Program-made: the position numbers and the translations under genes
Notes under the pieces: model-generated
What the model was told of the DNA's origin: nothing
Databases searched by the model: none
What the model saw: only the letters and a program-made list of their open reading frames with translations
Source of the DNA: Legionella sp.
Lineage (GTDB): Bacteria > Pseudomonadota > Gammaproteobacteria > Legionellales > Legionellaceae
Length of the DNA: 64,000 nt
Assembly: GCA_009995425.1 (NCBI GenBank)
Contig: JAACPN010000005.1
Coordinates: 55,349 to 119,348 of the forward strand
Reading direction: 5' to 3'
Shown here: one piece after another, positions 10,311-63,206 of the stretch
Position numbering within the stretch: position 1 is the stretch's first letter
How the letters are laid out: each line of letters opens with the position of its first letter

Positions 10311-11921
10311 TTATACTGGTATTGGAAGCGGTTCTTTGCCATTTTCTTCAGCGATTGCAAACTGCCTAACTTCTTTTAGATATTCCTTTTCTTGTGTTGC
10401 AAAATATCCACAAAGTCCAATAGAGCCCGTTACAATTGGCAAAATAGAGGCCGTCATTGCTGAAGCCCCGACACTTGTTACCGGTATACCAGCTAATTTG
10501 GCAAAAACACTCGTCATAGGTAGCGCCCAGTGCATTAAACTGGGTAATAGCGCCAGGCCGTTAATTGGCGAGCATAGTAAACTACCTAGGATTATCATCG
10601 TGATTGTAAACATACAAAAACCGAGAAATATTTTATGCCAAAAATCACGCCTTGCATCTATAAAATTAACAGTTTCAATTAATGCATTTAAATTATCTTT
10701 ATGCTCCTCTAAAAAATAGTACGGTCTTTGCATACGAGGATATTCTGAATGATAAATCGTATCAAAGTTTATTGATAACCTCATTCTTTCAAGTATTTCA
10801 CTGGCAGCTATAAAATCAGAAATATGTTTTTCTGTTGCAGAATAGGTAAGTTCAAAATCGTTGTTATCAGTATTGCACTGTGCCGCAAGAACTTTGTCGG
10901 AATCCATGTTTTTTATTATTTGCTTCAGTAGATTGAATGACTTAAATTTAAGGCTTTGTGGTGTATTTAATAATTGCTCATCCCAATAAGTAATCGTGTC
11001 TTGCATTAAAGAGCGTTGAACAAGATAATTTTCTACTTGCCTGCCCAAGTCGGGCAGATTAAAACCATATGTTTTTTCTTTGACACTTGAATATGAAACA
11101 ATTTTTTTATCACATAATTCAGCAGCACATCCATATGTAATAAAATGCTCGTTTTCAAATAGACGCTCATGTTCATTTTTAAAAAAAACATTTGTCGCTC
11201 TATAGGTGTCCTGTTGATTATTAAGCCTACTTAAAATATGGTTAGTGTAGGGCGCGGTAAAATCACCTACTTCTGGCGCAGGAAAACGACATACTGCCTT
11301 TTTTTCTTCTTCTATATCGTCTAGAAAAAAGGAAATTGATTCATCTAGAGCGGTATATAATGCTTCGTAATTTAAGTTTTTAACTAGCTGTAAAGCCGTC
11401 ACCCTCGTGGTATCTAATAAATAGCCTCTTATATTGCTTGCTCGGCGTGACGTAAAATCGAGTTCTCTTAAGCAAAAAACCAATGAAATTGATCGATGAG
11501 AGGCAAATCTAGATAAATATTTATACTCGAATTCTCCAGGGGTAATTCGGTTGTAGTTTAATTTCGCTCCATAGTCATGCATGGTTTCTGAATGCATGAT
11601 TTCTTCGAGCTGCCATCCATGTTGGGTTGCTTCTGTGTGTATTCTCAGCACAAATCCTTTTTCAGTGGTATGTCCTGCTTTTGATGTAACATCTAAAATT
11701 TCATTGACGAAATTAATATCTTCTATTTTGTTAGATAAATCAGTCAAATCAATGTTACCTGGTAGAGTGATTGCTTCCTGCATGCCTTGAGTAAAATAGG
11801 TTTTATTTGCATCATCCAAATACACGCAATCTTTCTCTGCGTTGCTTAAATCATCAAACAGAGACGACATTAATTTCAGACGAGATCTGTCCCACATTAA
11901 ATTATGCATTAAACGATCCAT
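10311..11921 (-). CDS. Hypothetical membrane-anchored protein (effector-like); 3-prime major part of a gene split by a MITE
   Basis: 536-aa ORF with no recognised family. C-terminal hydrophobic hairpins (IFLGFCMFTITMIILGSLLC..; ILPIVTGSIGLCGYF) followed by a Glu-rich tail (AIAEENGKEPLPIPV). The frame stays open 14 codons upstream of the Met, up to the MITE. Confidence 0.6.
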   Translation of the reverse strand: MDRLMHNLMWDRSRLKLMSSLFDDLSNAEKDCVYLDDANKTYFTQGMQEAITLPGNIDLTDLSNKIEDINFVNEILDVTSKAGHTTEKGFVLRIHTEATQHGWQLEEIMHSETMHDYGAKLNYNRITPGEFEYKYLSRFASHRSISLVFCLRELDFTSRRASNIRGYLLDTTRVTALQLVKNLNYEALYTALDESISFFLDDIEEEKKAVCRFPAPEVGDFTAPYTNHILSRLNNQQDTYRATNVFFKNEHERLFENEHFITYGCAAELCDKKIVSYSSVKEKTYGFNLPDLGRQVENYLVQRSLMQDTITYWDEQLLNTPQSLKFKSFNLLKQIIKNMDSDKVLAAQCNTDNNDFELTYSATEKHISDFIAASEILERMRLSINFDTIYHSEYPRMQRPYYFLEEHKDNLNALIETVNFIDARRDFWHKIFLGFCMFTITMIILGSLLCSPINGLALLPSLMHWALPMTSVFAKLAGIPVTSVGASAMTASILPIVTGSIGLCGYFATQEKEYLKEVRQFAIAEENGKEPLPIPV

Positions 11922-12381: not shown

Positions 12382-12963
12382 TCAGGATGAAGGAAAGTTT
12401 AACGTTGCACTGGCATTTGAAGTACACATTTGCGTTGCATCAACACAGGTAATCGCAATAGGTGCTGGTGTTGTGTTGTTCGACCACGTCACCACGTTAC
12501 TTAATGCCGCAGAGGGTGATGTGTTTGTACCAACAGTATACGTAGGATATTGAGCGGGTGTTCCCTGCAAAATGCCTAACTGAACGCACCAAGTTCCCGC
12601 ACCATTGCCTGGCGTCGTGGGTGCTGGACCTGAATTTTGCGCAGCTTCATACAGATAATTCATCATCATGCTATACACATAACCTGCGCCCAATGGCGCA
12701 GACGCAGAAGGATTCAATGTCATATCGTTTGACCACATGGCCCCGTAAAGATCACCATGATTATCAAAGTAAGATGTCGTGCAATCCGCTTGAAAAAGTT
12801 GTTGAATAAAGACGCCTGTGATCGTAAACATTTGGGCTTCAGAAGAATTCCGAATGGTTATAGAAGATAGTGAATCACCCAGCCTCCTGTCAAAGAATGC
12901 AGCATGCGCTATGTCTATAAAAAAAACACTTATACCTATCGTGATCAAGAAAATTTTTTTCAT
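12382..12963 (-). CDS. Secreted protein of unknown function, paralog A (4 conserved Cys)
   Basis: 193 aa with a signal peptide (MKKIFLITIGISVFFIDIAHA). It aligns with the neighbouring ORF: LSSITIRN / C / GAMWS / GAGYVYSMMMNYLYEA / TWCVQLG / ITCVDATQMCT. Confidence 0.7.
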   Translation of the reverse strand: MKKIFLITIGISVFFIDIAHAAFFDRRLGDSLSSITIRNSSEAQMFTITGVFIQQLFQADCTTSYFDNHGDLYGAMWSNDMTLNPSASAPLGAGYVYSMMMNYLYEAAQNSGPAPTTPGNGAGTWCVQLGILQGTPAQYPTYTVGTNTSPSAALSNVVTWSNNTTPAPIAITCVDATQMCTSNASATLNFPSS

Positions 12964-12990: not shown

Positions 12991-13614
12991 TCAAGGCCGC
13001 TGATGTGGAAAAGGTTGCGGTTGAATGATATCTGTTGTAGTGCATTGCCTCGTTGAGTCATTGCAAATAATATTTGTAAAACTTATGGGAAGATCGCCCT
13101 CGATATACTGCACCAATTGATTGGCATTCTCTAACGCGCCATTTGTGCTTGTTAAAGTACCGGTACCTACGGTTTGATTGGTGACGCCTAACCACACACA
13201 ATAGGTATTACCGCCATTAAAAGAACCAGGCGTACCCAAAGCTCCATGCCCATCAATATGTGCTTGATACAAAAACATCATGATCATATTGTACAAATAA
13301 TTCGCGCCAATATTTCTCGTTTCATTCGTCGCCATCGTCACTTTCGGCGACCAAAGCGCACCAAAAGGAGCCCCCTCACTTTCAATCAAGGGCGTTAAGC
13401 AAGCATTTCCAGCACCCTCACCTAGCACGAACAAATAAATGCCCGTAACCGTATCTTCAGCACCAATATTTTGAATGCTTATCTGTGAAAGTGTGGCAGA
13501 AAGTATATCTCTTGACGTCATGAATTCAGTATTTTTAGAATTTAACATGGGAGGCGAAGCCAAGACCAAATGTGGTATAAGCAAGAATAGAAAAACCCAT
13601 GGCTTTATCATCAA
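12991..13614 (-). CDS. Secreted protein of unknown function, paralog B (4 conserved Cys)
   Basis: 207 aa with a signal peptide (MMIKPWVFLFLLIPHLVLAS). It shares blocks with paralog A: LSQISIQN / C / GALWS / GANYLYNMIMMFLYQA / TYCVWLG / IICNDSTRQCT. Confidence 0.7.
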   Translation of the reverse strand: MMIKPWVFLFLLIPHLVLASPPMLNSKNTEFMTSRDILSATLSQISIQNIGAEDTVTGIYLFVLGEGAGNACLTPLIESEGAPFGALWSPKVTMATNETRNIGANYLYNMIMMFLYQAHIDGHGALGTPGSFNGGNTYCVWLGVTNQTVGTGTLTSTNGALENANQLVQYIEGDLPISFTNIICNDSTRQCTTTDIIQPQPFPHQRP

Positions 13615-13684: not shown

Positions 13685-15595
13685 ATGCTTATGAGTGCGA
13701 TTGGTGCAATATTTTCGATTCAAAACAAACCGATTGACGAAGCATCGCTGCAAGCATTGCATCATGGCATGGCTCGTCATGGAAAACATGGTTCAAACAC
13801 CTGGTTTTCGAACACGTGTGGGCTAACACAACAAAGCTACTACCACACATTAAGCACACAACTCGCGTCCTTTCCATATTTTGATAAAAAGCACAACATT
13901 GGCCTTGTTGCTGATGTTCGCTTATCGAATCGAACTGACCTGCACAAATCACTTCACGCCTCTTTTTCACATCAATATTCCGATGCTGAACTTATTATAT
14001 TGGCTTATTTAACATGGGGTATCGATTTTATACTCCATTTGGTGGGTGAATTTAGTTTAATCCTCTGGGACACAAAATTACATCGTTTCGTGGTTGCTGT
14101 GGATCACTTTAATACCCGGCCACTTTATTATTTTTTTAATCAAGATTTTCTGATCATTTCAAGCGTGCTTTCTGCCTTACATCATGTGCCGTGGGTACCA
14201 CGAGAACCTAATTTAAGTGTGATTGCACGACATGACTTTAAACGTTTTTTATTAGAACCCGGTGAAACATGCTTTAAACATCTTTATTTTTTACCACCGG
14301 CCAATCTTTTAATTGCTGATCCCTCGGGTATAAAATTTCACACGTACTGGCGTCCAACGTTAGGAGCGCCTTACGCTTTTAAATCAGATAACGATTTCCA
14401 AGAAGCCTTTCACGAGCATTTTTCAAACGCCGTGCATGCAACGGTCGATACCGACCGTCCTGTTTGCTTACAATTGAGTGGCGGTTTAGATTCTTCTGCA
14501 ATTGCACTTATGGCGGCTAACGTGCTTGGTTTTGAACAAAAGAAATTAATTTGCTTGTCCAACGTTTTGCCTCCTAATAGCCATGATAGCCTAAACGACG
14601 AACATGAATACATCGATTTAATCCATGCACCAAACCTTATCAAAGAAACCGTGATCGACCCATGGCGAGGGCCTTTTGATCATTTGGATGCATGCAAAAC
14701 ACACTTGTACACCAGTCCGCAACATTACCAGCACCGCGCGATCAACGCTGCGGCAAGGCGTCATCAAGCATCTGTTGTGTTACATGGCACACTTGCAGAA
14801 CTCACCACCAGTTATTCTGGCCACGAGCGCTTATCTGAGCTGTTCCATCGCTTACATTGGATAACGTTGATCCGCGAGCTTTTTGCTCACCGTAAAATTT
14901 ACAAAACATCGTCTCTATCGCTTGCCGCTTTGGTCATACACCCCAAAATTCTCCACGGATATCTTAAAAAACGACAGCACAGTACGCGCCAAAAATTACT
15001 GACAGCGAGCTTAATCAACCCAACATTTATTTTAGAGCAGATGACGCCCGATGCGTTGATGTGGCTTGAGCAACAGTTTTTAAAACCTTTGATTTTACAC
15101 AGCATGAATGCCCGTAAAAACGCCCTGATCCAGATAGAATCTCACCTAAGACATGCCAGCACCTTGTTTACCCAACTGGATGATGGAATTGATTCAGCTC
15201 TTTATTTTAGTAATCCTTATTTTGATAAACGCTTAGTCGAGTTTTGCCTCAACATTCCGAACGCCTATCGCTTTAGGCATGGCTATCCTCGCAGTATTAT
15301 TCGGCTAGGCATGCAAAAATATTTACCCAAAGCCATTGGCCAGCGCATCACAAAATCGCCTTTTTTACCTGATTATCATGTGCGCTATCATCAGCATATG
15401 TCAAAAGCACGGGAGGCTATCGAAGCCGTCCAATCACATCCTTTAGTACAACATGTGATTGATGTACCGCGCTTGTTATCATGCCTCAACACCCCTTCGT
15501 CTTCTCATGCACTCAGCACAGAAACAAACTTTTTAAATTACTATGTGATCCCACAAGCCGTTTATTTAGCTGTCTTTTTGTCTTCGTTTAGCTGA
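13685..15595 (+). CDS. Asparagine-synthetase homologue of the lasso-peptide cyclase (McjC-like, C protein) type
   Basis: 636 aa. The N-terminus MLMSAIGAIF lacks the Cys2 nucleophile of glutamine-hydrolysing AsnB. PP-loop ATP pyrophosphatase motif VCLQLSGGLDSSAIAL. Adjacent to PqqD-like and HPrK-like genes. Confidence 0.75.
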   Translation: MLMSAIGAIFSIQNKPIDEASLQALHHGMARHGKHGSNTWFSNTCGLTQQSYYHTLSTQLASFPYFDKKHNIGLVADVRLSNRTDLHKSLHASFSHQYSDAELIILAYLTWGIDFILHLVGEFSLILWDTKLHRFVVAVDHFNTRPLYYFFNQDFLIISSVLSALHHVPWVPREPNLSVIARHDFKRFLLEPGETCFKHLYFLPPANLLIADPSGIKFHTYWRPTLGAPYAFKSDNDFQEAFHEHFSNAVHATVDTDRPVCLQLSGGLDSSAIALMAANVLGFEQKKLICLSNVLPPNSHDSLNDEHEYIDLIHAPNLIKETVIDPWRGPFDHLDACKTHLYTSPQHYQHRAINAAARRHQASVVLHGTLAELTTSYSGHERLSELFHRLHWITLIRELFAHRKIYKTSSLSLAALVIHPKILHGYLKKRQHSTRQKLLTASLINPTFILEQMTPDALMWLEQQFLKPLILHSMNARKNALIQIESHLRHASTLFTQLDDGIDSALYFSNPYFDKRLVEFCLNIPNAYRFRHGYPRSIIRLGMQKYLPKAIGQRITKSPFLPDYHVRYHQHMSKAREAIEAVQSHPLVQHVIDVPRLLSCLNTPSSSHALSTETNFLNYYVIPQAVYLAVFLSSFS

Positions 15596-16404
15596 GCATC
15601 TAACCACGTGCCGAATTCATCAAAACACGCCAAATTATCTGGACGCGTTAATTGATAACACGGAATGGCGCTCGCCATGTGCGTCACGTGCTGCAAGTGT
15701 AGGTTTAATTTTCCAAGCGCTTTTAACATAGAATAACGGTAGGTATTTCTAATAAGCAATTGGATTTTATCGAAGTTGTATACCGGGGTTTCTTTGATTA
15801 TACCCTGACGATTGTCTACATGTAATTCATACACACGACTGATTTGAATCGGATGCTTCCACGCATGTTCAATGGGTAATTCAAACTTACCCGGTCGATG
15901 ACTAATCGGTTGAAGCGCGTCGCTTGACTTACCTAAATACGCAAGCGTATCTGTCCAAAGTTTTGCGCTTGTTGACATGGGCATAAGCTCCATCTGCTGG
16001 TCATGAAAACGAACAACGGCTAAATCATCCGTTAAAAACGGATAACCTTTTTGGTTCATGGTGGCAGCCAACGTTGATTTACCTTGTCCTGATGGGCCAC
16101 AGAACAAAACTGCTTGCCCATGCACAACAATTGCCGAGGCATGTAACACTAAAAAATCATGATATTGAAGTAAGTAGGCTAAAACCGTGCCATTAAGCCA
16201 GGTTAAAACGAGCTTAGGTTCACGTAAAGCAGGATCCATATCAATAAAAATGGTATTACTTTTTGCGCATACCTCATAACATGCAACATCTTTAATTTTA
16301 AAAAAAAATCGCGCTGCGTCACAATAATAATGCGTAGATGCATCTGGAAAGTTGATACGCTTATGTTTTAATACAATGTTCAACCCGAACGATTCTTTTA
16401 ACAT
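15562..16404 (-). CDS. HPr-kinase-related P-loop kinase (lasso-precursor Ser kinase type)
   Basis: 280 aa. LHASAIVVHGQAVLFCGPSGQGKSTLAATMNQKGYPFLTDDLAVV matches the HPrK/P C-terminal domain signature (LHG..V...G.G.L..G.SG.GKS..AL.L...GH.L..DD). Its 3-prime end overlaps the cyclase 3-prime end by 34 nt. Confidence 0.75.
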   Translation of the reverse strand: MLKESFGLNIVLKHKRINFPDASTHYYCDAARFFFKIKDVACYEVCAKSNTIFIDMDPALREPKLVLTWLNGTVLAYLLQYHDFLVLHASAIVVHGQAVLFCGPSGQGKSTLAATMNQKGYPFLTDDLAVVRFHDQQMELMPMSTSAKLWTDTLAYLGKSSDALQPISHRPGKFELPIEHAWKHPIQISRVYELHVDNRQGIIKETPVYNFDKIQLLIRNTYRYSMLKALGKLNLHLQHVTHMASAIPCYQLTRPDNLACFDEFGTWLDAQLNEDKKTAK

Positions 16405-16494
16405 CTTTATTTATTATACCTTGATGGGTAAATTGTCAAAAGCAGACAACCCAGTTAGAATAAATCCATACTAATGTAACGTAAATGCTTTGAT

Positions 16495-16941
16495 ATGAAT
16501 ATAGACTCAACAACCTTACTTAAAAAAGCAACGTCTTGCATTACTGAAGCAGATTTCGGGCATGAAACCGTCCTTCTTCACCTTGAAGATGGAAACTATC
16601 ATTGCATGAATGCCACCGCTTCTTTGCTTTGGGCGTGGCTAAATGAGCCCATCTCTTCTTCTTCCCTACATCAACGATTAGTCCGTGAATTGGGATATCA
16701 GCCAAGTCACGCGGACACCGAGATTTTTCAATGGGTCAACGATGCCTTAGCCAACAAACTACTCGAATTAGTTTCTCCACGTGCGTTTGAAGGATCTGTT
16801 GCAATCACAGAACAGAGCATGGATAACCAGCAACCCATCACGCATTATAGTTCGCCCAAAACAACCTTATTTGACGTGCTAACCATCACACAAGGCAATA
16901 GCACCGATTTTCAAACCGATAATTTAGAAACAGGATCATAA
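16495..16941 (+). CDS. PqqD-like RRE protein (lasso B1 type) carrying a 55-aa C-terminal extension that looks like a lasso precursor
   Basis: 148 aa. Residues about 5-92 have PqqD-family size and pattern (ETVLLHLEDGNYHCMNATASLLWAWLNEP.S...L...L). The tail is ..MDNQQPITHYSSPKTTLFDVLTITQGNSTDFQTDNLETGS*. Confidence 0.7.
   Translation: MNIDSTTLLKKATSCITEADFGHETVLLHLEDGNYHCMNATASLLWAWLNEPISSSSLHQRLVRELGYQPSHADTEIFQWVNDALANKLLELVSPRAFEGSVAITEQSMDNQQPITHYSSPKTTLFDVLTITQGNSTDFQTDNLETGS
16819..16941 (+). other. Candidate lasso precursor peptide (25-aa leader + 15-aa core GNSTDFQTDNLETGS), in frame within the PqqD-like ORF
   Basis: From the internal Met at 16819: leader MDNQQPITHYSSPKTTLFDVLTITQ with a YxxP motif and Thr at -2. 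The core (16894-16938) starts with Gly, has Asp at position 9 and ends in Ser. No convincing SD precedes the internal ATG, so independent translation is uncertain. Confidence 0.45.
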
Positions 16942-16964: not shown

Positions 16965-17666
16965 ATGAAAACAATCATTATTGCGATAGCCGGCGCATCC
17001 GGTTCAGGAAAAACCACCGTCGCACGAAAAATTCATCAACATTATGGTGATGATCAATGCCTCATCCTTTCTTCCGATAATTATTACAAAGACCAACGTC
17101 ATCTTTCACAAACAGAACGAGATAAGCTTAACTTCGATCATCCTGATAGCCTTGATTTTGAACTTCTGGCACATCATCTCCAGTTGCTGAAACAAGGTGA
17201 AAGCATTGACATGCCCACCTATGATTTTGAAACACATGCCCGTCAAGAACAAACCGTTCGTATTTTACCCAAGCCCATGATGATTATCGAAGGTATTTTG
17301 ATTTTACATCCCGCATGCCTCACGCGCTTGTATGATACAAAAATTTTTGTGGATGCCGATGCTGATGTATGCTTGGTACGACGTCTTCGACGCGATATCA
17401 CAGAACGCGGAAGAGCTATGGGAGACATCTTGACGCAATACATCCGGGACGTAAAACCTATGTTTCATACTTATGTCGATCCGTGTAAAGCTTCTGCTGA
17501 TTTGGTCATTAATACCACAAATTTTTGTGATATCACGCCTGTAGTTATGCATATCGATCATAAAACCGAGACAGCACAACGCGTAGATTTAAGTTTTTTT
17601 GCACACGCACATGCTATGACGCCTCAAGCTGAAATATACCAAGGGGATTATACCTATTGGTCTTAA
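16965..17666 (+). CDS. udk: Uridine kinase family P-loop kinase
   Basis: 233 aa. IAIAGASGSGKTTVA P-loop, NFDHPDSLDFELL and PTYDFETH blocks typical of Udk. It starts 24 nt after the stop of the PqqD/precursor ORF. About 20 aa C-terminal extension. Confidence 0.8.
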   Translation: MKTIIIAIAGASGSGKTTVARKIHQHYGDDQCLILSSDNYYKDQRHLSQTERDKLNFDHPDSLDFELLAHHLQLLKQGESIDMPTYDFETHARQEQTVRILPKPMMIIEGILILHPACLTRLYDTKIFVDADADVCLVRRLRRDITERGRAMGDILTQYIRDVKPMFHTYVDPCKASADLVINTTNFCDITPVVMHIDHKTETAQRVDLSFFAHAHAMTPQAEIYQGDYTYWS

Positions 17667-17801: not shown

Positions 17802-18902
17802 ATGAAAATAATCAAACTCACGCTATTTATGATAGCCATTTTCTTCTGTGGATTTTGTCATGCTCATGATGCCCGATCAATATTTTATCAAGCATTCGAT
17901 TTTGCAAAAAATGAATCAGCATTTAAAGACAATATCGATTGGAATCAAATTGAAGAAAAGGGACTCGCGTTTATTGGAGATAAGCCGCTAGCTTGCCGTG
18001 GTATTTCAGCAATTAGTCATATTTTAGCACCCGAACTATTTAAATATGATTACCATACGTTTGTCACTGAAAATGGTTTAGACAGTGGTGAATGTCCTTT
18101 GTATAAGCCCCATGAAATAAGTGATTATTGGCACGATTGGGTTCAATTAAGCACGGTTAGAAGAGATTTTATTAAAAAAAAGATCGAGACCTTTTGGGGT
18201 AAACGATTTGGCGATATTGCATATATCTATATACCCAGCGGCTTTGCCTACAATGATGATGAAATAGAGGCAAGGATTCGCGAAGGAAGAAGTGTTGTTG
18301 ATAGCTTAAACCTTGAAACTGCAACGGGCATAATTGTTGATTTTCGCCTTAATACTGGGGGAAATTACGTCCCGATGCTGATGAGTCTTGCTAAAATAAT
18401 CAATCCTGCGACCCTATTTAAATATACACATGGAGAGAGCATAAGAATATCAGAAGATGGTAATACCCTCTTATCTTTAATACCTGGTGAACAAGAAGAA
18501 ATACTCTATAAAATAAGCTACCTCCCTCCGGTCAACCGAGTGAACCTACCCATCGTAATTTTAATCGATGAGGGAACAGCTAGCTCTGGGGCTATCGCGG
18601 CTTTCGCCCTCAAAGAAAATTCAAGTACGAATCAGTTATTAGGCGAAAAAACCAATCCGAGCCTATCCGTGAATGCAAGCTTACAATTAAACGATGGTAA
18701 CTATTTTAACTTGATGATCTTGAGAATTTTATCACCAACAGGTCTAGAGCAACCGCTATATCTAGACAGTGACATCCATGTAAAACATGATTTTTTCTCA
18801 ATATTTAGCACCAAGGATGAAAGTATTATACAAGGTATTAATTTAATAAGAGATCGGGTTAGGCGAAATACACGTGGAGAGCGTTATGTCCTTAAATCAT
18901 GA
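17802..18902 (+). CDS. Secreted S41-family (C-terminal processing) peptidase-like protein
   Basis: 366 aa with a signal peptide (MKIIKLTLFMIAIFFCGFCHA). S41-like blocks: IIVDFRLNTGGN and PIVILIDEGTASSGAIAAFAL. Confidence 0.6.
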   Translation: MKIIKLTLFMIAIFFCGFCHAHDARSIFYQAFDFAKNESAFKDNIDWNQIEEKGLAFIGDKPLACRGISAISHILAPELFKYDYHTFVTENGLDSGECPLYKPHEISDYWHDWVQLSTVRRDFIKKKIETFWGKRFGDIAYIYIPSGFAYNDDEIEARIREGRSVVDSLNLETATGIIVDFRLNTGGNYVPMLMSLAKIINPATLFKYTHGESIRISEDGNTLLSLIPGEQEEILYKISYLPPVNRVNLPIVILIDEGTASSGAIAAFALKENSSTNQLLGEKTNPSLSVNASLQLNDGNYFNLMILRILSPTGLEQPLYLDSDIHVKHDFFSIFSTKDESIIQGINLIRDRVRRNTRGERYVLKS

Positions 18903-20449: not shown

Positions 20450-20707
20450 ATGACCATAACAACGATTAGCAGCAGAGAATTCAATCAAGACGTTAGTAAG
20501 GTAAAACGTGCGTCTTCACGTGGCCCTGTCTTTATTACTGACAGAGGCCGACCGGCGCACGTTTTATTAACAATAAAAGATTATCAAAATCTTACAAAAA
20601 CAAAAGAGAGTATCGTTGAACTTCTAGCCATGCCTGATGCGGCTAACATTGATTTTGAACCACCCAAATTAAATAAGACACTTTATCAAAAAGAGGACTT
20701 GAAATAA
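20450..20707 (+). CDS. Type II antitoxin, Phd/YefM family
   Basis: 85 aa. The opening ISSREFNQDVSKVKRASSRGPVFITDRGRPAHVLLTIKDYQNL is typical. Its stop overlaps the start of the PIN toxin gene. Confidence 0.8.
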   Translation: MTITTISSREFNQDVSKVKRASSRGPVFITDRGRPAHVLLTIKDYQNLTKTKESIVELLAMPDAANIDFEPPKLNKTLYQKEDLK

Positions 20708-21129
20708 TGTATCTACTGGATACCAACGTGATTTCTGAGTTAAGAAAAGCAAAATCAGGAAATGCCCATGAAGGCGTCATTTCATGGGCTAACAGCATCC
20801 CCGTATCTAACCTTTTTTTGTCGGTTATGACTATTTTAGAGCTTGAAACCGGTATATTACAGATAGAGCGGCGTGATGTATCTCAAGGATCCGTCTTACG
20901 AACATGGCTTTCCATGCATGTTTTACCAGCATTCAATGATCGCATTTTGCCTCTCGACACGGCTGTTGCAGCACGCTGCGCAAGACTCCATGTCCCTAAT
21001 CCAAAATCAGATAGAGATGCAATCATCGCAGCAACAGCTTTAGTTCATGGGATGACCGTTGTTACACGAAACGTTGCTGATTTTGATAAAACAGGCGTAG
21101 ATATCATAAATCCTTGGGGATCTGATTAA
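20707..21129 (+). CDS. vapC: Type II toxin, PIN-domain VapC family
   Basis: 140 aa. MYLLDTNVISELRK N-terminus. Conserved acidic residues (D5, E..; DAIIAATALVHGMTVVTRNVADF). Confidence 0.85.
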   Translation: MYLLDTNVISELRKAKSGNAHEGVISWANSIPVSNLFLSVMTILELETGILQIERRDVSQGSVLRTWLSMHVLPAFNDRILPLDTAVAARCARLHVPNPKSDRDAIIAATALVHGMTVVTRNVADFDKTGVDIINPWGSD

Positions 21130-55609: not shown

Positions 55610-56665
55610 TTATAACCCTTCCACCTTAAGCTGCATCACTTTTCCATGCCATGAAACCAGCAGCACGGGCGATTTATGCATTTCATAGGCATGTGTGCCA
55701 TCTGCACTGGTCATGCTTCCAAGCCATCCTGGAGACAAGATGGTTAAACTCGTTCGAACAAACATCTTACCGTTTAATAACCACGCTTGAGCATCCCCTC
55801 CACTGACCGTCAATCGTGAGCTTCCGCTTGGGGGAACACCATCAAGTACATGCAATAATACATCACTCGCCGAAGAAGGAAGGCTGACTCCCATAGGTGC
55901 TTGCTTTGCGTTAGGACCATTACCCTGTACTCGCAAATCAACACGATAATCCACGGCTTTTTGTCCTGGAATAAGTGTTAACATCACCGGGGTATTTAAA
56001 CCACGAAGTCGAACGGCTAAGTTACCATAATTATACAACTTACTCGCTTGGATCATAAGCGTGTTACTGACTCTATCCCATTGAATATTAAACGCACTGG
56101 GATCACCTAAGTCATAGGCAGAAATCGGCCAAGGCGCTCCTGTTGAATCTAAAAAAACCAACGACGACACAAAGCCTTGCGATAAACGAATCACCGGCGG
56201 TGTTGAGCCAGGTGACAAATCGACCATTTGCGACGTTGCCGTGGGTTTAGGAGGCGTGCTGGCTGAAGATGCTTTCGCATATTCATCGCTTTCATACCAT
56301 TTTTTTACCTCGACCGTTTGCTCAGGTGATAACGGAAACATCTGTTTTCTCACTTCACGAAACGCCATATCATCAATGAGTGCATCGTTCGATGGAGATA
56401 GACTTGAGGAAATATTATTTTCGCTGGAAGCTCGGCTTTTCGTAACGCGCGATTGCCTTACGGGAGGTTTTGAAGATGCAGCAGCGGCCTCAGCGGACGC
56501 CCCATCTTCTGAAGAAGATGTACCCAGTCGTTTTTGTAATAATCGCAATTGCTGGAGCGCCTGCTCTGCTGAATCTTTTTTTTCAGCAGACCACGTGATA
56601 TCAGCCAGGCCGAGACAAGCAATCAGCATACCCCAAACAAGCCTGTATTTTATCTTGTTTTTCAT
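55610..56665 (-). CDS. icmK: IcmK/DotH outer-membrane core-complex protein
   Basis: 351 aa with a signal peptide (MLIACLGLADITWSA). Conserved C-terminal beta-rich domain. Positioned between icmL and icmE, overlapping icmL by 4 nt. Confidence 0.85.
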   Translation of the reverse strand: MKNKIKYRLVWGMLIACLGLADITWSAEKKDSAEQALQQLRLLQKRLGTSSSEDGASAEAAAASSKPPVRQSRVTKSRASSENNISSSLSPSNDALIDDMAFREVRKQMFPLSPEQTVEVKKWYESDEYAKASSASTPPKPTATSQMVDLSPGSTPPVIRLSQGFVSSLVFLDSTGAPWPISAYDLGDPSAFNIQWDRVSNTLMIQASKLYNYGNLAVRLRGLNTPVMLTLIPGQKAVDYRVDLRVQGNGPNAKQAPMGVSLPSSASDVLLHVLDGVPPSGSSRLTVSGGDAQAWLLNGKMFVRTSLTILSPGWLGSMTSADGTHAYEMHKSPVLLVSWHGKVMQLKVEGL

Positions 56666-57306
56666 CGCACACCTGCTCCAGACGCCTCAGGCCCCACCAC
56701 AAATTGAGCAATACCAATGCCTCGCGGTGAATTCAAGGTAGATATACGCGAAATCAAAAGGGTAACCACATTTCGCTGTTGTGAAAATTCACTCGCACTC
56801 TGATACGTCACCAACATCGGCATTTGCACACGCCAAGAATAACGTCCATTGAGTACACCTTTTTGAAGAATAATCGGTGCACTGGTCGCAACGGCTGAAA
56901 CAATTAATTTTTTCGCTCGTACCGCATCTAAATTATTCGAGTCTTCTAATGCGGTTAAAAATTGCGTCCAACCTTCTGAGGTAAAAAATCCGGAGGACGC
57001 TTGAAGCTCGGTTCTATAATTCACAAAATTATAAGTAAAAGCTGCAACCGCCGCTTGATTAGCCCATTGCAAAACAGCAGAGTCGGACTGATTGGGTTCG
57101 TTTAAAGCAAACAACGGCGTAATACGACCATTGATGCTTGTTGCAAAATATTTAGGTGCTGGGGGATGCGTTAATAAATACGCCAACAGCGACGCCATCA
57201 GGATGTTTGAAATAAACGATAGCAATAAAATCACCATCATTTTTCGTTGTCCATCACGATAAAAATCGTTTCTTAATGTCACCGCGGTCAAGGCATCGTT
57301 TGCCAT
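56662..57306 (-). CDS. icmL: IcmL/DotI
   Basis: 214 aa. FYRDGQRKMMVILLLSFISNILMASLLAYLL N-terminal TM. Periplasmic VirB8-like size and position. Confidence 0.85.
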   Translation of the reverse strand: MANDALTAVTLRNDFYRDGQRKMMVILLLSFISNILMASLLAYLLTHPPAPKYFATSINGRITPLFALNEPNQSDSAVLQWANQAAVAAFTYNFVNYRTELQASSGFFTSEGWTQFLTALEDSNNLDAVRAKKLIVSAVATSAPIILQKGVLNGRYSWRVQMPMLVTYQSASEFSQQRNVVTLLISRISTLNSPRGIGIAQFVVGPEASGAGVR

Positions 57307-57321
57307 GGCGTCCTCTCTTAA

Positions 57322-57609
57322 TTATTCAACATTTAATATTTTTTCATCCACAACAGCATCCGGATCATTCCCCAGCAACGGAACAGCACTCATATTACGA
57401 GCATCCAACGGAATCACTTCCGTCGGTGGAACCATACCGTTGGTGATATAAAAATGACGTTTTGGCTGATATAAATAAGTGTGCCAAATAACCACGCCTA
57501 ACACCACATTAATCACTAACGAAAAAACCAGTGCGCTTTGTGAAAAACGAAAAGTTGTCGTATAAAAACGTTTCGTTCGTCTTATGTTACGCCACACCTG
57601 TCGCCGCAT
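57322..57609 (-). CDS. icmM: IcmM/DotJ
   Basis: 95 aa with a single TM. Sits between icmN and icmL, as in Legionella. Confidence 0.75.
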   Translation of the reverse strand: MRRQVWRNIRRTKRFYTTTFRFSQSALVFSLVINVVLGVVIWHTYLYQPKRHFYITNGMVPPTEVIPLDARNMSAVPLLGNDPDAVVDEKILNVE

Positions 57610-57631
57610 GCTTACCCCTACAGACTATCCA

Positions 57632-58207
57632 TCAAACAATCGTTCGTCTAAACGTAATCTCTACACGAGCATTGGGTGATTTATCACTCGCACGCGCTGT
57701 TGTTACAATAGGTTTATCACTCCCCATCCCTTGTGTAAAGAGCAAGCGCGAATCAACGCCTTGTGACCACAAATAATTTGCAACCGCATGAGCCCTTGCT
57801 AACGACAACGCGTGTTCTCGTTTAGGTGAAACATAAGGACTGGTAAATGCTGCGACATTGAGCCCAACCATTCGAAATTGACGTAAATAACACGCGATTT
57901 CATTTAATTGCTTATATGATTCTCGTATCAAACGGGGTGATTGGTCTGCAAACAGTGATTTGGCGGGCATGCTTAATAAATAATCTTGCCCAATTGAAAT
58001 AATTTGCACACCTTGCTGTTCTAAACGTCGCTCCAAAGCGATGATTTCAGCATCCCCTAGAGCCACTTGATTTGGCAATTGAGGTTCATTCTGAATCAAG
58101 CTTGGTGGAAGATTGGACTGACATGCAACAAGGCATACTAAAACAGCAACAAGGCTTGCTTTCATAACTGGCATCGCACGCAGATCAGCAAACAATCGAC
58201 TTAACAC
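57632..58207 (-). CDS. icmN: IcmN/DotK OmpA-like lipoprotein
   Basis: 191 aa. Lipobox LVACQ. C-terminal OmpA-type peptidoglycan-binding block (LSLARAHAVANYLWSQGVD..RLLFTQGMGSDKPI...NARVEI). Confidence 0.85.
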   Translation of the reverse strand: MLSRLFADLRAMPVMKASLVAVLVCLVACQSNLPPSLIQNEPQLPNQVALGDAEIIALERRLEQQGVQIISIGQDYLLSMPAKSLFADQSPRLIRESYKQLNEIACYLRQFRMVGLNVAAFTSPYVSPKREHALSLARAHAVANYLWSQGVDSRLLFTQGMGSDKPIVTTARASDKSPNARVEITFRRTIV

Positions 58208-58288
58208 GAATTCAAACCCTTACTTATTTTTATATACTTATCATAACAACACAGAACACATCAAGAGACAAGTTCTAAGCTTGATATT

Positions 58289-60622
58289 TTATTTGCCTTT
58301 TGCCCCTGCTTTACGTGACTCATCGATGCGTTTAACTAAAGTTTTCACCGAGTCTGCGAGTAAATTCGGTTCCATGAGGACACGACGTTCAGGTGGGTAA
58401 GCTGTCGCCATTTGAAGGTCTTTCACGATTTCGTTGGCAACGGCACCCGCCAACTTATCTTTATCGCCACACAAACGACCAATATTCATTAAATAATCAC
58501 GCGCTTCTTGAATCGGTAATAATGCTTTTGAAAAAGCTTTAACATCTGCGGCTTTGACAGCAGGACTGCCCTCTGGAGCTTCACGCAGCTCACTGAAGAT
58601 GGTGATATTCTCTGGAGGCGTTTCATCAAACAAGGCTTCCACTTCTTCGGGTTCATTACGTTTATGAAAGGCTAGCAAAGCAGCAACACCTCGTTCCATG
58701 GGATCAGCAGCCTGAGCCTCCCGTAAATAGTGCGCTATATGAGGGACCTCATCATCTTTGATTACTGCACGTATCGTTAAATCATCACGTGCTAAAGCCT
58801 CTTGAAAACTCTTCGCTTGCATCATAAGTTTATTCAAATACACATCGGGAGGCGGTTCTACTTTTAAAAATTGATTCACTTTGAGACGAGCCACGGGCTT
58901 TGGATTCGCATAAAACATACGTGCTCGAACAATTTTCGATTTAAAAAAGATGTGTGCTTCACCTTCTGTTTGTTCTTTGAGATCTAATAAATCAACACGC
59001 GCACGGCGCTCAAAAGAAGAGCTCTTGGTGTCTTTATAAGTATTCGAGATACCACTTTCTTCTGTCTGAAACGCGTCAACTTTGGTTACATAGGCCTCGC
59101 CCGCTGTTTTTGTGAAAAAATCCCATGTCTCTGTCGGATCTTCAAGCTTCATACAAATTTTAATATTCGTATTAGCTCCAATCGAGGCCGCTTCTTCTTT
59201 GGATGATTTTTGAAATGCCGGTAAATCCTGACCCGCAAAAATGGCCGAAAAACCAAGCGACCGTGCCTGTGCTGGCACCACGGCAAAGCCTTCTACCGCA
59301 TAATAACCGTACTCATCTAAAATACACATATAAGGCGTAGGCGCATTGGTCGGTTTACGCTCAATTACATCACGATAATCCCCCTCCACATCTTCACCTA
59401 AACCTGCCGCCATCATCGCTTTCAACGAGGCCACGATCACTTTACCCAAATTGGCTAACTCATCCGGTGATTTTTCGAGCGCAGGCAAAAGCACGACAAG
59501 AACTCGACGATTTAAAATCACATCTTTAAAATCCACTTCGGCTAAATTGGTTCGAATAATATGTCCGTACGTATCCGCCAATGATGAAAAACTTCGAACC
59601 AATTGCATCGTAATAAAACCATGTTGCTCGAGTACTTGAGAAACTTGCTTTCCTTTTTTTTCAGGATTATACCCCGGCAGCGTTTTCAAATAGTTACGCA
59701 GTGGATCCGTCACAAGCTTTGGAATCGATTCAATATTGACACTCTCTTGATCATCACGAGGAAACACTTTATCAATCACAATCGATTCTAAGCGCTGCAA
59801 ATCAAAATAATTACGAATACTGTTTGCATCGAGTAAAATCGCCCCTTCATCACGCATGTAGACAAGCAAACGCATGAGCGCTTCAACAAACGCAATGGCT
59901 CGCCCTTTCCACATATCACCATCACCCTGACCTGAGCTTCCCATCAAGTTAACCACCAACTGAGTTAACATACTCGATGAACCTTGGCAAAATGGATTCA
60001 ATGTATTGGACAAGCGTTTTTCTTGTGGACCGATAATATCGCGCGCACCCGTCATAAAATTAATCAGCAACAGATCATCTTCTCGCCCCATGCTACGCAC
60101 CATCGAAAAGACTTTAGCATAAAGCGAGTTATCACCTTTTCCATCCACATAAATAAAGCCGCTGCCTTGCACCAAGGCATTGTAAGCAATCGAAACCAGC
60201 GCTTCTGTTTTACCACTCCCGGTCGAACCAAAAATCAAAGCATGGGTTCGCATATCATCATTAGCAAACCATAATTCTTCACTTGTTTTATTATCATTAC
60301 CAAAAAATGCTATGCCGCGTGACATATTCGGTTTTTTAATACCCGGTATAAGATCATTATAATCTTTTACGCGTGCCGTCATCGGCATCCGAAACGGCAA
60401 AATCTGCTTACGCGTTAAGGTATACCAACCCGCAAGGCCACCCAGAATGAAACCCAACAGCGCAATTTCGGGTACCGCATAACTGACAATCGCAATACCA
60501 CAAATCAAAGCCGTGACATTAACTGAGTCAGCAAAAAAATCTTTAATGCGCTGGCTTAAGGTTCGGGTATCCCGTAACAGCAGGGTAGGATCCATTTCAT
60601 GACGTGCTTCAACCCCTCTCAT
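58289..60622 (-). CDS. icmO: IcmO/DotL type IV coupling protein
   Basis: 777 aa. Two N-terminal TMs, Walker A IFGSTGSGKTEAL and Walker B ILDEYGYY. 4-nt overlap with icmP. Confidence 0.9.
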   Translation of the reverse strand: MRGVEARHEMDPTLLLRDTRTLSQRIKDFFADSVNVTALICGIAIVSYAVPEIALLGFILGGLAGWYTLTRKQILPFRMPMTARVKDYNDLIPGIKKPNMSRGIAFFGNDNKTSEELWFANDDMRTHALIFGSTGSGKTEALVSIAYNALVQGSGFIYVDGKGDNSLYAKVFSMVRSMGREDDLLLINFMTGARDIIGPQEKRLSNTLNPFCQGSSSMLTQLVVNLMGSSGQGDGDMWKGRAIAFVEALMRLLVYMRDEGAILLDANSIRNYFDLQRLESIVIDKVFPRDDQESVNIESIPKLVTDPLRNYLKTLPGYNPEKKGKQVSQVLEQHGFITMQLVRSFSSLADTYGHIIRTNLAEVDFKDVILNRRVLVVLLPALEKSPDELANLGKVIVASLKAMMAAGLGEDVEGDYRDVIERKPTNAPTPYMCILDEYGYYAVEGFAVVPAQARSLGFSAIFAGQDLPAFQKSSKEEAASIGANTNIKICMKLEDPTETWDFFTKTAGEAYVTKVDAFQTEESGISNTYKDTKSSSFERRARVDLLDLKEQTEGEAHIFFKSKIVRARMFYANPKPVARLKVNQFLKVEPPPDVYLNKLMMQAKSFQEALARDDLTIRAVIKDDEVPHIAHYLREAQAADPMERGVAALLAFHKRNEPEEVEALFDETPPENITIFSELREAPEGSPAVKAADVKAFSKALLPIQEARDYLMNIGRLCGDKDKLAGAVANEIVKDLQMATAYPPERRVLMEPNLLADSVKTLVKRIDESRKAGAKGK

Positions 60623-61749
60623 GTTTCCAGTCCTTGAAATTCCTTCGGTGATAATTTAACTTCTTTGACGGCGACTTCGAGTGCTTTGATTGCTTCATCA
60701 ATCATCGGTGTGAGCGAACGTCGCTTCATCACCTGCTCCGCACGCCAATGAGCAAAAGCGCCCCCCACTTCTGAATACGGTGTTTGCCTTCCTGCACTGT
60801 TCAACATGTACCACAAACGCCTATCAACCAATTTAAGCCATAAAAATTCTGATGTAGGCACAACGCCATCATTACGAGCCGCCATGATAAGCGCCGCCAT
60901 CACGGTTAAAACATACGCATGGCGCGCCACGACTTCTTGCACTAACTCCGAATCTTTATATTTTTCAAACGTCGGTGTAGCTACTGAATAATCGGGCTTG
61001 CCTGTCGTACTGGTTGTATCAAGCACTCTTAAAATTAACGTCGCTGCTGCACGATCGCGGCACATACGCGCCATAAAAACAGCAGCGAGCGCTTTCACAT
61101 GCGGTTGACAACGATCAAAGCCTTCCCATGCAGCACCTAATTGCAACGTAAAAATACGTTTCGCATCACCACGCCGTATCCCAGCCGTCAACTCCATGCC
61201 TGGAAGTGGTGCGTCAATTAAAGGATCTTCCAGCTTCAATAATTTATGCTTCCAAGCAAATTCAACGGGGGTTAAAGCCATAGCCCAAGGCCCTGTATTA
61301 ATATCCATGCTCACAAGATCTTGTGCTTTAACAACAGGCGTAATGCATGGCCAATTTTGTTGTTCTTGCTCACGCAGCGATTTCATACTGTAGGTTTTCC
61401 GATAGCGTAATGCTGTATTCGAGCGATAAAGTATGACCGCAAACCCAAACAATGCAACGGCATAAGGATAGCGCATGTAGGCACCCACACGACTCATGAT
61501 TTCAACCAGATCCCCCCATTTAACATAAGCTGGGTCAACCGTTTGCATCAAATCAATTTCGTCGGTCAAAACCGTACCACCTAAAACAAGATGAACCAGC
61601 TTCGCTTGCACAAGATTCACTGAAAAAACAGCGGCAACGATATATTGATGTGCAACATACCAAATAAAATAGGCTGTAAGAAACAGAAGGAGGGTAATCC
61701 AAACCGGTGCTAAGGAGTTATCACCACCACCTGATTGTTGTTGGGCCAT
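60619..61749 (-). CDS. icmP: IcmP/DotM
   Basis: 376 aa, as I recall for L. pneumophila IcmP. N-terminal TM pair. Immediately upstream of icmO and coupled to it. Confidence 0.85.
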   Translation of the reverse strand: MAQQQSGGGDNSLAPVWITLLLFLTAYFIWYVAHQYIVAAVFSVNLVQAKLVHLVLGGTVLTDEIDLMQTVDPAYVKWGDLVEIMSRVGAYMRYPYAVALFGFAVILYRSNTALRYRKTYSMKSLREQEQQNWPCITPVVKAQDLVSMDINTGPWAMALTPVEFAWKHKLLKLEDPLIDAPLPGMELTAGIRRGDAKRIFTLQLGAAWEGFDRCQPHVKALAAVFMARMCRDRAAATLILRVLDTTSTTGKPDYSVATPTFEKYKDSELVQEVVARHAYVLTVMAALIMAARNDGVVPTSEFLWLKLVDRRLWYMLNSAGRQTPYSEVGGAFAHWRAEQVMKRRSLTPMIDEAIKALEVAVKEVKLSPKEFQGLET

Positions 61750-61816
61750 GCGCTTGCCCTTATGTTATGAATCCATATAATAAATTTAGTATATACTCAC
61801 TTTTACCCAGATGCGA

Positions 61817-62413
61817 CTACCCAGCAGAATTCGCATCAGGCATTTTAATAAGTCGTCCTTTTTTATACCTATACTCACCACTAGCATGCACAAAACGCAT
61901 GATATTATCCAGTTCTAATGCTTTATTTTTTAAGGTCAAAAGCTCGGTTCCAAAGCGATCTTTCGGTGTTTTATCTGCCGGTGTTGGCAAAATAAAATCA
62001 CGCATAATATAGATCGCAACATAAGCCTCATTCAGATGATTGCGCCTTTCTTTGAATGCTTTCTCGATGGCTTTTTGATCTGCATAGACAGGCCTTGATA
62101 TCGCTTGACGCGGAAGGTTTGTCAAAATCTTTTCCCAGGATTCGAGTTTCCCACCGTCAGATGAATATAAGGCTATAAAAACTTCTTGTTGCGTATCAGA
62201 CGGTGCTTGGACTTTTTTATGCTCTGTTGTTTGATGGTTCTCAGTTTGCGCGGCACGGCCCGCACGCTCAGTAAAATCATCATGACTTTTTTGTATCTTC
62301 TTACCAAGTACACGTAAAAAAGCGGAGTTATTCCAAGGCCCCCGCTCCAATAACTCACGCAGTGAATCCAACACCGTGTGAACTTGCTTTTCTGATAATT
62401 TATTATTTTTCAT
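61817..62413 (-). CDS. icmQ: IcmQ
   Basis: 198 aa. Blocks GPWNNSAFLRVLGKK, VFIALYSSDGGKLESWEKILTNLPRQAISRPVYAD, NEAYVAIYI and FVHASGEY resemble L. pneumophila IcmQ as I remember it. Confidence 0.85.
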   Translation of the reverse strand: MKNNKLSEKQVHTVLDSLRELLERGPWNNSAFLRVLGKKIQKSHDDFTERAGRAAQTENHQTTEHKKVQAPSDTQQEVFIALYSSDGGKLESWEKILTNLPRQAISRPVYADQKAIEKAFKERRNHLNEAYVAIYIMRDFILPTPADKTPKDRFGTELLTLKNKALELDNIMRFVHASGEYRYKKGRLIKMPDANSAG

Positions 62414-62460
62414 AGAGCGTAGGCTAGCAAAAATAAGGTGTTATTCAGATTATAGCACCG

Positions 62461-62757
62461 TTACATGCTTCGCGTTGGAGTAGACGATGCAATCTTAGCT
62501 TCATCGGCTGTTTTTTCAACGCTTAATTCAGGATTAATCACATCATAAATACGGCGCTCCGCATACTTAAGCATCGCTAGAGCTTCATCATTCTGCTCAC
62601 TTTGACGAGACGAGTTACACAAAGTCTGTAAAGGCGCCATCACTTCAGCCAGTACAGCTAACACGGCTAGAACATCACTGCGATCAGCCGCATTGAGTTC
62701 TACATGATTCTCAAAAAATTTCATACCCACAGCCCCTATTAAAAGCAGCATGCCCAA
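62461..62757 (-). CDS. Small protein in the icmR slot (putative functional IcmR homologue, IcmQ chaperone)
   Basis: 98-aa ORF between icmS and icmQ on the same strand. Predicted helical and acidic. I recognise no sequence similarity to IcmR. The call is by position only. Confidence 0.5.
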   Translation of the reverse strand: MGMLLLIGAVGMKFFENHVELNAADRSDVLAVLAVLAEVMAPLQTLCNSSRQSEQNDEALAMLKYAERRIYDVINPELSVEKTADEAKIASSTPTRSM

Positions 62758-62823
62758 ACAAAGAGCAATACATAATATTAAGCGTACAAAAGATAGCTTA
62801 AAGGAAGCTTAATAAGGCATCTC

Positions 62824-62839
62824 TTTTCGAATTCTTTAC
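62824..62839 (-). promoter_or_regulatory. Possible CpxR-type box GTAAA-N6-GAAAA upstream of the icmR-slot gene
   Basis: The minus strand reads GTAAAGAATTCGAAAA, 67 nt upstream of the ATG at 62757. The E. coli CpxR consensus is GTAAA-N5-GTAAA. L. pneumophila icmR is reported to be CpxR-activated. Confidence 0.3.
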
Positions 62840-62860
62840 ATTATCTTACATAATTAAAGC

Positions 62861-63205
62861 TTAATCATACATCAATTCATCCAAAGGCGTGTGATCTTTG
62901 CTCGGACCACCTTGCACAAGTTCATGAAGCACATCCGTCATACAGAGCAAGCGAAGAGCATTGGGTGTGACTTCATCAAATAATACACGCGTGCCAAGTA
63001 AGGCGTCTTCCGCGTCTTCAAACGATGCGCCAAGACCGTAGCCCAAACATAACGAAGCCAATTGATCTGCACGGCGAACAATCGCTGGTAAAAGCCCCGT
63101 GGCTGAAAAAACATCTTCATGCTTAATGGGATGATTGTTCAAAAAGAAATGAGCTTTCATTTTTGAAGCGACCAACACCATACCTTTAGAAATTTCAAGT
63201 GACAT
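62861..63205 (-). CDS. icmS: IcmS adaptor/chaperone
   Basis: Starting at the internal Met (MSLEISKGMVLVASKM...) gives the canonical 114 aa. Conserved ATGLLPAIVRRADQLASLCLGYGLGASFED..., LRLLC.TD and PLDELMYD. The 149-aa track ORF would overlap icmT. Confidence 0.9.
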   Translation of the reverse strand: MSLEISKGMVLVASKMKAHFFLNNHPIKHEDVFSATGLLPAIVRRADQLASLCLGYGLGASFEDAEDALLGTRVLFDEVTPNALRLLCMTDVLHELVQGGPSKDHTPLDELMYD

Positions 63206-63206
63206 A

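Follow-up and report, generated by a model that had tools for sequence, protein, structure and literature searches.

A PqqD-type recognition protein in an uncultured Legionella carries a probable lasso-precursor leader and core as its C-terminal tail

In the genome of an uncultured Legionella we detected a PqqD-type protein that carries a probable lasso-precursor leader and core as its C-terminal tail. The gene lies in a stretch of 64,000 nucleotides (assembly GCA_009995425.1, contig JAACPN010000005.1, positions 55,349 to 119,348 of the forward strand), referred to below as the window. It encodes in one open reading frame (ORF) both the recognition element (RRE, the B1 component) and the apparent precursor (the A component) of a lasso peptide, one of the peptides that are made on ribosomes and modified after translation (RiPPs). 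This arrangement had been proposed in an original prediction made from the letters of the DNA and its ORFs; it is confirmed here, and comparison with homologues shows that the tail is fused to the RRE and under purifying selection. From these comparisons we consider it likely that the protein is a natural B1-A fusion of a paeninodin-like pathway, in which a lasso RRE is followed by a disposable linker and then by its own leader and core. The gene is laid out as follows.

16495..16941, forward strand: fusion gene, with the RRE (B1), linker, leader-like segment and 15-amino-acid core in one 148-amino-acid ORF
16495..16776, forward strand: RRE or PqqD-like domain, amino acids 1-94 (Pfam PF05402, AlphaFold2, Foldseek)
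16777..16842, forward strand: variable linker, amino acids 95-116 (low identity among the 18 members; AlphaFold2 predicted local distance difference test score, pLDDT, of about 62)
16819..16821, forward strand: internal in-frame ATG, codon 109, start of an alternative 40-amino-acid peptide
16843..16893, forward strand: leader-like segment, amino acids 117-133, H-Y118-S-S-P121-K-T-T-L-F-D-V-L-T-I-T132-Q133, with the conserved aromatic-x-x-Pro motif
16894..16938, forward strand: predicted 15-amino-acid core GNSTDFQTDNLETGS, with Gly134 at core position 1, Asp142 at core position 9 and Ser148 as the last residue

The frame is uninterrupted over its 148 codons and runs without a stop from the PqqD domain into the tail, as had been claimed. 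The last 40 residues of the protein are MDNQQPITHYSSPKTTLFDVLTITQGNSTDFQTDNLETGS, and its end, ..SMDNQQPITHYSSPKTTLFDVLTITQGNSTDFQTDNLETGS followed by the stop codon, matches the tail that was originally quoted. GenBank annotates the product as 'PqqD family protein [Legionella sp.]' (NCT56254.1). The hallmarks that had been listed for the tail are all present in the window: a Tyr-x-x-Pro motif (Y118-x-x-P121), Thr at position -2 (T132), Gly at core position 1, Asp at core position 9 and a 15-residue core ending in Ser. The predicted ring joins Gly134(1) to Asp142(9), leaving a predicted tail NLETGS with Ser148 as the predicted phosphorylation site. The intergenic gaps measure only 70, 90 and 23 nt and are too short to leave room for a separate precursor gene, in agreement with the earlier statement that no such ORF is visible in the flanks. 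No other small precursor was found in the 64-kb window, and the fusion was its sole match in six frames to an RRE hidden Markov model (HMM) built from 63 PqqD sequences. Instead of a stand-alone small precursor ORF, we found a tail that in every sequence continues the frame of the PqqD domain without an intervening stop.

The motif by itself is statistically unconvincing, since a relaxed lasso-precursor pattern matches nine times in the six-frame translation of the window, eight of these being chance matches far from the cluster; the comparative evidence decides. We assembled orthologues from word-based and exhaustive protein searches and from contigs retrieved via the neighbouring cyclase. 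The resulting set comprises 18 distinct homologues, the most distant at 27% identity; in 18/18 the PqqD domain and the tail share one frame, which settles in favour of fusion the question of whether the two are fused or separated by a stop in related loci. The family is rare, with about 18 distinct sequences in collections of up to 15 billion proteins, and a metagenome scan with the tail motif added a single new locus (L093), fused as well.

The pattern of conservation and drift that had been anticipated for such a tail is what the alignment shows: the proline of the aromatic-x-x-Pro motif, Gly at core position 1 and a C-terminal Gly-Ser are present in 18/18 sequences and the ring acceptor Asp9 in 17/18 (the other has Asp8 and a 14-residue core), and the linker varies in sequence and in length (7-25 amino acids). 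Lasso precursors take Gly, Ala, Ser or Cys at core position 1 and Asp or Glu at position 7-9. The one hallmark that did not generalize is Thr at position -2, which is found in 5/18 sequences, the other 13/18 having Ile, a residue that, like Val, is accepted at this position in phosphorylated lasso peptides and has precedent in their leaders (PMC10368454). Mean pairwise identity is 0.34 in the RRE, 0.06 in the linker, 0.28 in the leader-like segment, 0.63 in the core and 0.78 in the last ten residues, making the core the best-conserved part of the protein. Against the 78% identical orthologue L001, the ratio of non-synonymous to synonymous substitution rates (dN/dS) is 0.11 for the RRE, 0.83-1.0 for the linker, 0.08-0.10 for the leader-like segment and 0.05 for leader plus core, where 11 differences are synonymous and 3 non-synonymous; the core itself shows four synonymous changes and no non-synonymous one. 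These low values in the tail indicate that it is read in this frame under strong protein-level constraint.

As a background set we used 80 generic lasso loci with cyclases 22-33% identical, taken from among the matches listed in a scan of genome collections with a cyclase alignment; they were of no use as orthologues. The 66 RRE ORFs of these loci end at the domain, and 0/66 carried a precursor-like extension. The view that the PqqD protein simply ends in an ordinary disordered stretch, which resembles a lasso precursor by chance, has on its side the nine pattern matches in the window and the failure of precursor HMMs to match the tail. It would not account for a core that is the most conserved segment in 18 sequences, with a dN/dS of 0.05 for leader plus core beside a nearly neutral linker, nor for a fusion that always adjoins a lasso-type cyclase when ordinary lasso RREs are untailed. 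Chance resemblance, which we regard as extremely improbable, is effectively refuted by these comparative sequence data.

The N-terminal domain resembles lasso B1 proteins. Pfam PqqD (PF05402) matches amino acids 24-90 with 28.9 bits against a cut-off of 23.4. The NCBIfam model lasso_PqqD (NF033536) reaches 31.6 bits against an 80-bit cut-off, marking a divergent member, and the HPr-rel-A PqqD model (TIGR04353) 17.7 bits against 35. A profile search of the PDB with the RRE sequence returned lasso B1 proteins first. AlphaFold2, run for the whole fusion on a 63-sequence alignment, gave a model with a mean pLDDT of 86.8, in which the RRE forms three strands and three helices (pLDDT 87-96), the linker scores about 62 and the core about 70. 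The best Foldseek matches of the RRE in the PDB were TbiB1 (5v1v, 5v1u) and TfuB1 (6jx3), each solved with a leader peptide. The model also places a beta strand at residues 123-126 (T-T-L-F, immediately C-terminal to Y118-x-x-P121), in a block with a pLDDT of 83-90.

The original prediction had left open whether the precursor is made from the internal ATG at 16819 or whether recognition element and substrate are one polypeptide. In three orthologues (L083, L085 and L087) the stretch from the end of the RRE to the leader motif is free of in-frame ATG, GTG and TTG codons, and Met is absent from 11/18 linkers; internal initiation is thus not a conserved route. Together with the strand predicted at residues 123-126, this favours the second possibility, and from the sequences a single polypeptide is better supported than a separate 40-amino-acid peptide, the conserved product being apparently the fusion; some species may in addition start translation internally. 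A nested gene, in which the 40-amino-acid precursor is made separately from the ATG at 16819 and the continuity of the frame is an overlap, or in which both products are made, has some observations on its side. A 40-amino-acid peptide with a 25-amino-acid leader would be of typical lasso precursor size, and the window, L002, L001 and L084 all have a Met in frame, 24-25 residues ahead of the core. In L001 this codon is preceded by a good GGAGG five nucleotides upstream. In the window, L002 and L084 the ATG has no Shine-Dalgarno sequence; the weak or absent ribosome-binding site noted earlier for 16819 is therefore borne out, although it says little, since a clear one is missing from the main start at 16495 too. 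Against a nested gene stand the three orthologues and the Met-free linkers, a stop codon between RRE and tail in 0/18 sequences, and the absence of precursor-like tails from the 66 ordinary lasso RRE ORFs. We regard it as improbable.

The following genes and sites lie around the fusion.

13685..15595, forward strand: lasso-type macrolactam synthetase (cyclase, C), 636 amino acids, asparagine-synthetase-like (NCBIfam NF033535, PP-loop)
15562..16404, reverse strand: HPr-kinase-like peptide kinase (K), 280 amino acids (weak Hpr_kinase_C and HprK_rel_A matches; catalytic motif)
12382..12963 and 12991..13614, reverse strand: two paralogous signal-peptide proteins of 193 and 207 amino acids that travel with the cluster
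16433..16461, forward strand: promoter-like site (TTGTCA, 17 nt, TAGAAT) inside the 90-nt divergent gap 5' of the fusion gene

The best NCBIfam family of the cyclase is the lasso isopeptide cyclase NF033535. Its PP-loop SGGLDS is intact at amino acid 265, and a Ser stands in place of the N-terminal Cys that serves asparagine synthetase as glutamine-hydrolysing nucleophile. In the kinase, the motif H88-G103-G106-G108-K109-S110-D126-D127 is intact, with spacing identical to that of BsfK, whose motif residues were shown by mutagenesis to matter (PMC10368454). The fusion always adjoins a lasso-type cyclase, with the kinase alongside wherever flanking DNA is available. Cyclase and kinase are encoded convergently, with overlapping 3' ends (by 34 nt in the window, 15562..15595); this arrangement recurs in L001, L002, L084-L087 and L092 and holds for every locus having both genes. 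Among the 11 related loci that retain flanking DNA, 9 (L001, L002, L083-L087, L090 and L092; not L091 or L093) have at least one copy of the secreted paralogues beside the cluster. These proteins share a conserved Cys pair and fall into two orthologous groups. Pfam and PDB profile searches gave no match for them, and an AlphaFold2 model of one from a two-sequence input was unusable (pLDDT 49).

Cyclase homologues form a graded series. All readable contigs at 43% cyclase identity or above have the fusion beside the cyclase; in most of these loci the kinase is present too, together with one or two copies of the secreted paralogue. Two of the fusion loci encode B2 peptidases, both of the Transglut_core3 type. 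The operon of L091 contains the fusion, a kinase, a nucleotidyltransferase (N) and B2; no discrete B1 was found on its 8.4-kb contig, which ends just past the cyclase. In L086 (2715..5298) the fusion stands next to B2, accompanied by a second B2, an NTP_transf_5 nucleotidyltransferase and a discrete 92-amino-acid PqqD protein; this locus could use two recognition domains. The suggestion that the fusion would fit the absence of a B2 protease is contradicted by these two loci: since B2 co-occurs with the fusion, the fusion does not replace it, and the missing B2 at the window locus thus reflects a separate loss or relocation.

Further out, at 30-31% cyclase identity, the parts are separate. L088 has a kinase, a separate 43-amino-acid peptide (…WYTPEVEVIEAEETAAGGGGGPDFASELS) that matches the paeninodin family model, and a cyclase. 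L089 has a 96-amino-acid PqqD protein followed 28 nt later by a 60-amino-acid peptide, with 'YSTPK' in its leader and Ser at its C-terminus, which matches a lasso model. The simplest history would be that B1 and A were adjacent genes and that the stop codon separating them was lost. An exhaustive search also returned other PqqD proteins of 134-152 amino acids with C-terminal tails. Three of them have a lasso-like core with a C-terminal Ser: P0165 (…TFTQ before the core AGPGVGPDLGAQLGS), P0218 (MCR9191305.1; …NVAD before GDGNINESLSGDGLLMS) and P0217 (…NVAG before GTDDVQESVADGVLFS). If these tails are confirmed, the fusion arose more than once. In three others (P0166, P0179 and P0213) a YxxPxL leader-like motif precedes a conserved 'LDPIH(D/E)V'-type tail in which no core is obvious. 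At least three unrelated-looking tail types occur among the long PqqD proteins.

In the pathway that we consider likely, the protein is translated as one chain, as the conserved fusion and the orthologues without internal starts indicate. The leader-like segment (Y118-x-x-P121 and strand 123-126) is predicted to dock on the RRE, either in cis or in trans between two copies. The HPr-kinase-like enzyme would then phosphorylate the C-terminal Ser148 on the uncleaved chain, like the kinases of paeninodin-type systems, and the chain would be cut between Gln133 and Gly134. In L086 and L091 the obvious agent of this cut would be the cluster-encoded B2 cysteine peptidase; at the window locus the cutting enzyme could be encoded elsewhere or be a different protease. 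The cyclase would join the amine of Gly134 to the side chain of Asp142, giving a 9-residue ring and a 6-residue tail N-L-E-T-G-(p)S, with a predicted product at [M+H]+ 1567.65, or 1647.62 with one phosphate. Each copy of the RRE would be consumed with its substrate, at a cost of one recognition domain per peptide. Leader binding, phosphorylation, cleavage and cyclisation are all modelled here on established lasso biochemistry (PMC5067487; PMC10368454; PMC6993621).

Several observations weigh against a functional lasso pathway of this kind. The cyclase scores 282.9 bits with NF033535, below the 525-bit cut-off, and the kinase is likewise below the NCBIfam cut-offs (TIGR04352, HPr-rel-A kinase, 53 bits against 200). 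The 40-residue tail matched none of the curated precursor models, including the paeninodin family model NF033524, at E <= 10. The Tyr and Pro of its leader motif stand at -16/-13, compared with the canonical Tyr-x-x-Pro-x-Leu at about -17/-14/-12; in some orthologues they are at -15 and -12, and the Leu position is not fixed. We infer from the model that strand 123-126 docks on the RRE sheet; the strand itself is a DSSP assignment and its pairing partner is likewise inferred. The 6-residue tail of the product would have no bulky plug residue save a possible phospho-Ser, and the discrete B1 in L086 means that the fused RRE may in some cases not be the one at work. A B2 HMM that recovered B2 in 57 of the 80 ordinary lasso loci detected no such peptidase in six frames of the window, nor in eight other fusion loci. 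A tblastn search of the window with B2, N and B1 of L086 gave no match either, being insensitive enough that the B1 query missed the window's own RRE. No ABC (ATP-binding cassette) exporter (D) lies beside the cluster, whose flanks hold udk, an S41 peptidase, a tRNA-binding protein and an acyltransferase; a resistance-nodulation-division (RND) pump is encoded 4 kb away, but follows genome synteny.

These absences lend some weight to a different explanation, in which the tail is modified and never released. The tail would then be a cis-bound pseudo-substrate or regulatory tail whose Ser148 is phosphorylated by the kinase, with the asparagine-synthetase-like enzyme acting on the tail while attached or on another target; no lasso peptide would be made in loci without B2, and the genes would form a phospho-signalling or other module involving the two secreted paralogues. 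Nine loci yielded neither leader peptidase nor exporter, although every component is under purifying selection; the core (0.63) is more conserved than the RRE (0.34), unlike the usually variable cores of RiPPs; and the secreted paralogues are conserved partners. The kinase and the PqqD domain also show weak similarity to the 'HPr-rel-A system' models, and such pairs exist outside classical lasso clusters. What this explanation leaves unaccounted for is the core itself, with an invariant Gly exactly 15 (once 14) residues from the C-terminus, after Thr/Ile-x, and an Asp at position 9 or 8. This pattern corresponds to the needs of cleavage followed by cyclisation, and phosphorylation of a terminal Ser alone does not explain it. 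Lasso cyclases require a free N-terminal amine, which also counts against a tail that is never released, as do the B2 peptidases of two fusion loci. On balance we think an unreleased tail unlikely.

The likely B1-A fusion could also work in a more radical way, which we put forward tentatively. The fused RRE might act as a single-use, built-in chaperone in a B2-free pathway, presenting the leader in cis to kinase and cyclase, with the bond between Gln133 and Gly134 cut by a new type of partner. The unusually invariant 15-residue phospho-lasso or phospho-tail could then be a fixed ligand of the secreted paralogues found with the cluster in Legionella-like bacteria, and not an antibiotic; the whole would be a new RiPP-based module for signalling or host interaction. 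A core more conserved than the RRE, in a lineage of intracellular pathogens and with no exporter or peptidase, is a hint that the function lies elsewhere than in antibiosis.

RiPP biosynthesis rests on separate roles for a small precursor, a leader-binding recognition domain and enzymes that are reused, and a fusion of RRE and substrate breaks this separation. It would make recognition intramolecular, or reciprocal within a dimer, and the RRE stoichiometric instead of catalytic, and it would provide a ready-made system for how an RRE hands its leader to kinase, peptidase and cyclase in turn. The system is tractable by experiment. Genome-mining tools seek a short stand-alone precursor ORF and would therefore call such clusters precursor-less. 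It has been reported that 21% of over-length PF05402 proteins have no second domain (PMC12710340), and part of these may hide fused precursors.

Other features of the region are listed here for completeness. The promoter-like site at 16433..16461 is weak evidence, since the count of such sites in the region is not above that in shuffled sequence and only its position is suggestive; counts in the terminator scan were likewise no higher than in shuffled sequence, and an Rfam search of the 10-20 kb part of the window gave no match. The uridine kinase gene udk (16965..17666, forward strand), whose equivalog score is above the cut-off, starts 23 nt past the stop codon of the fusion with no terminator between them. 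It adjoins the fusion in L001 and not in L002, and is probably co-transcribed with it by accident of position. We rejected udk as a part of the system, as it is a full uridine kinase equivalog whose synteny does not extend beyond the closest relative. The S41 peptidase (17802..18902) was considered as leader peptidase and also rejected: it has a signal peptide, and the orthologous loci L001 and L002 lack it. PhdYeFM-type antitoxin and PIN-like toxin genes with a one-base overlap lie at 20450..21129 (forward strand), where L001 has a ParD/ParE pair. An orphan protein of 536 amino acids (10311..11921, reverse strand), encoded between fliA and the cluster, has hydrophobic C-terminal segments; it has no Pfam or NCBIfam match, is absent at the equivalent position of L001, and might be effector-like. 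The Dot/Icm genes for type IVB secretion (DotI/IcmL, IcmQ and IcmS; 56662..63310, reverse strand) place the window in the Legionellales.

The original prediction knew of no description of an RRE fused to its substrate. In our literature search we likewise found no natural RRE-precursor fusion; most subscription journals lay outside that search, so a prior report is possible. The closest known systems are the paeninodin-type clusters (padeCAKB1B2D), together with pseudomycoidin (psm) and the proteobacterial A-B1-B2-C-K-D type, in which the C-terminal Ser is phosphorylated on the uncleaved precursor (PMC5067487, PMC6993621, PMC10368454). With these the Legionella locus shares a lasso-type cyclase, an HPr-kinase-like kinase, a PqqD-type B1 and an apparent precursor with a Tyr-x-x-Pro motif in a leader-like segment, a small core residue 1, an Asp at 8-9 and a C-terminal Ser. 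It differs in that the precursor is the C-terminal tail of B1, that the core has 15 residues, and that we found no B2, ABC transporter or nucleotidyltransferase at the locus. The paeninodin family model NF033524 misses the tail, yet matches the separate precursor of L088.

The bsf cluster of Bradymonas sediminis (BsfA/B1/B2/C/K/N/D) is likewise of the kinase-containing proteobacterial type, with Ile at -2 and the same H-G-G-G-K-S-D-D spacing, and both phosphorylation and leader removal require its B1 (PMC10368454). BsfA differs in being a separate peptide that is phosphorylated on Ser3 rather than at the C-terminus, and B1 and B2 are discrete and both present. Production of lasso peptides without the full set of B proteins has precedents. 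Triculamin is made without a cluster-encoded B1 or B2 (PMC12070363), but its pathway has no RRE and relies on a follower peptide and a cyclase truncated at the N-terminus, whereas the Legionella locus retains the RRE and has a full-length cyclase. Leaderless production of pseudomycoidin is a further precedent for B-less biosynthesis, and bulky C-terminal modifications have been proposed to hold its thread in place.

RRE or PqqD domains are often fused to a pathway partner. RREs occur as discrete proteins or fused to biosynthetic proteins, and many over-length PF05402 proteins are unexplained (PMC12710340, PMC7470986); in experiments, B1 and B2 tolerate being split or fused (PMC5067487, PMC7470986). 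McjB, which joins an RRE to the leader peptidase, and the PqqD-PqqC and PqqD-PqqE fusions resemble the Legionella protein in that an RRE or PqqD domain is fused to a pathway partner, but the partners described are enzymes, not the substrate. The nearest conceptual precedent for a folded pathway domain placed in frame ahead of a core is the borosin family (omphalotin-type, self-sacrificing), in which a folded biosynthetic domain likewise serves as a long 'leader' and one protein is spent per product. The fused domain of borosins is a catalytic methyltransferase and that of the Legionella protein a non-catalytic recognition domain; with fold, chemistry and phylogeny unrelated, the likeness is one of analogy only.

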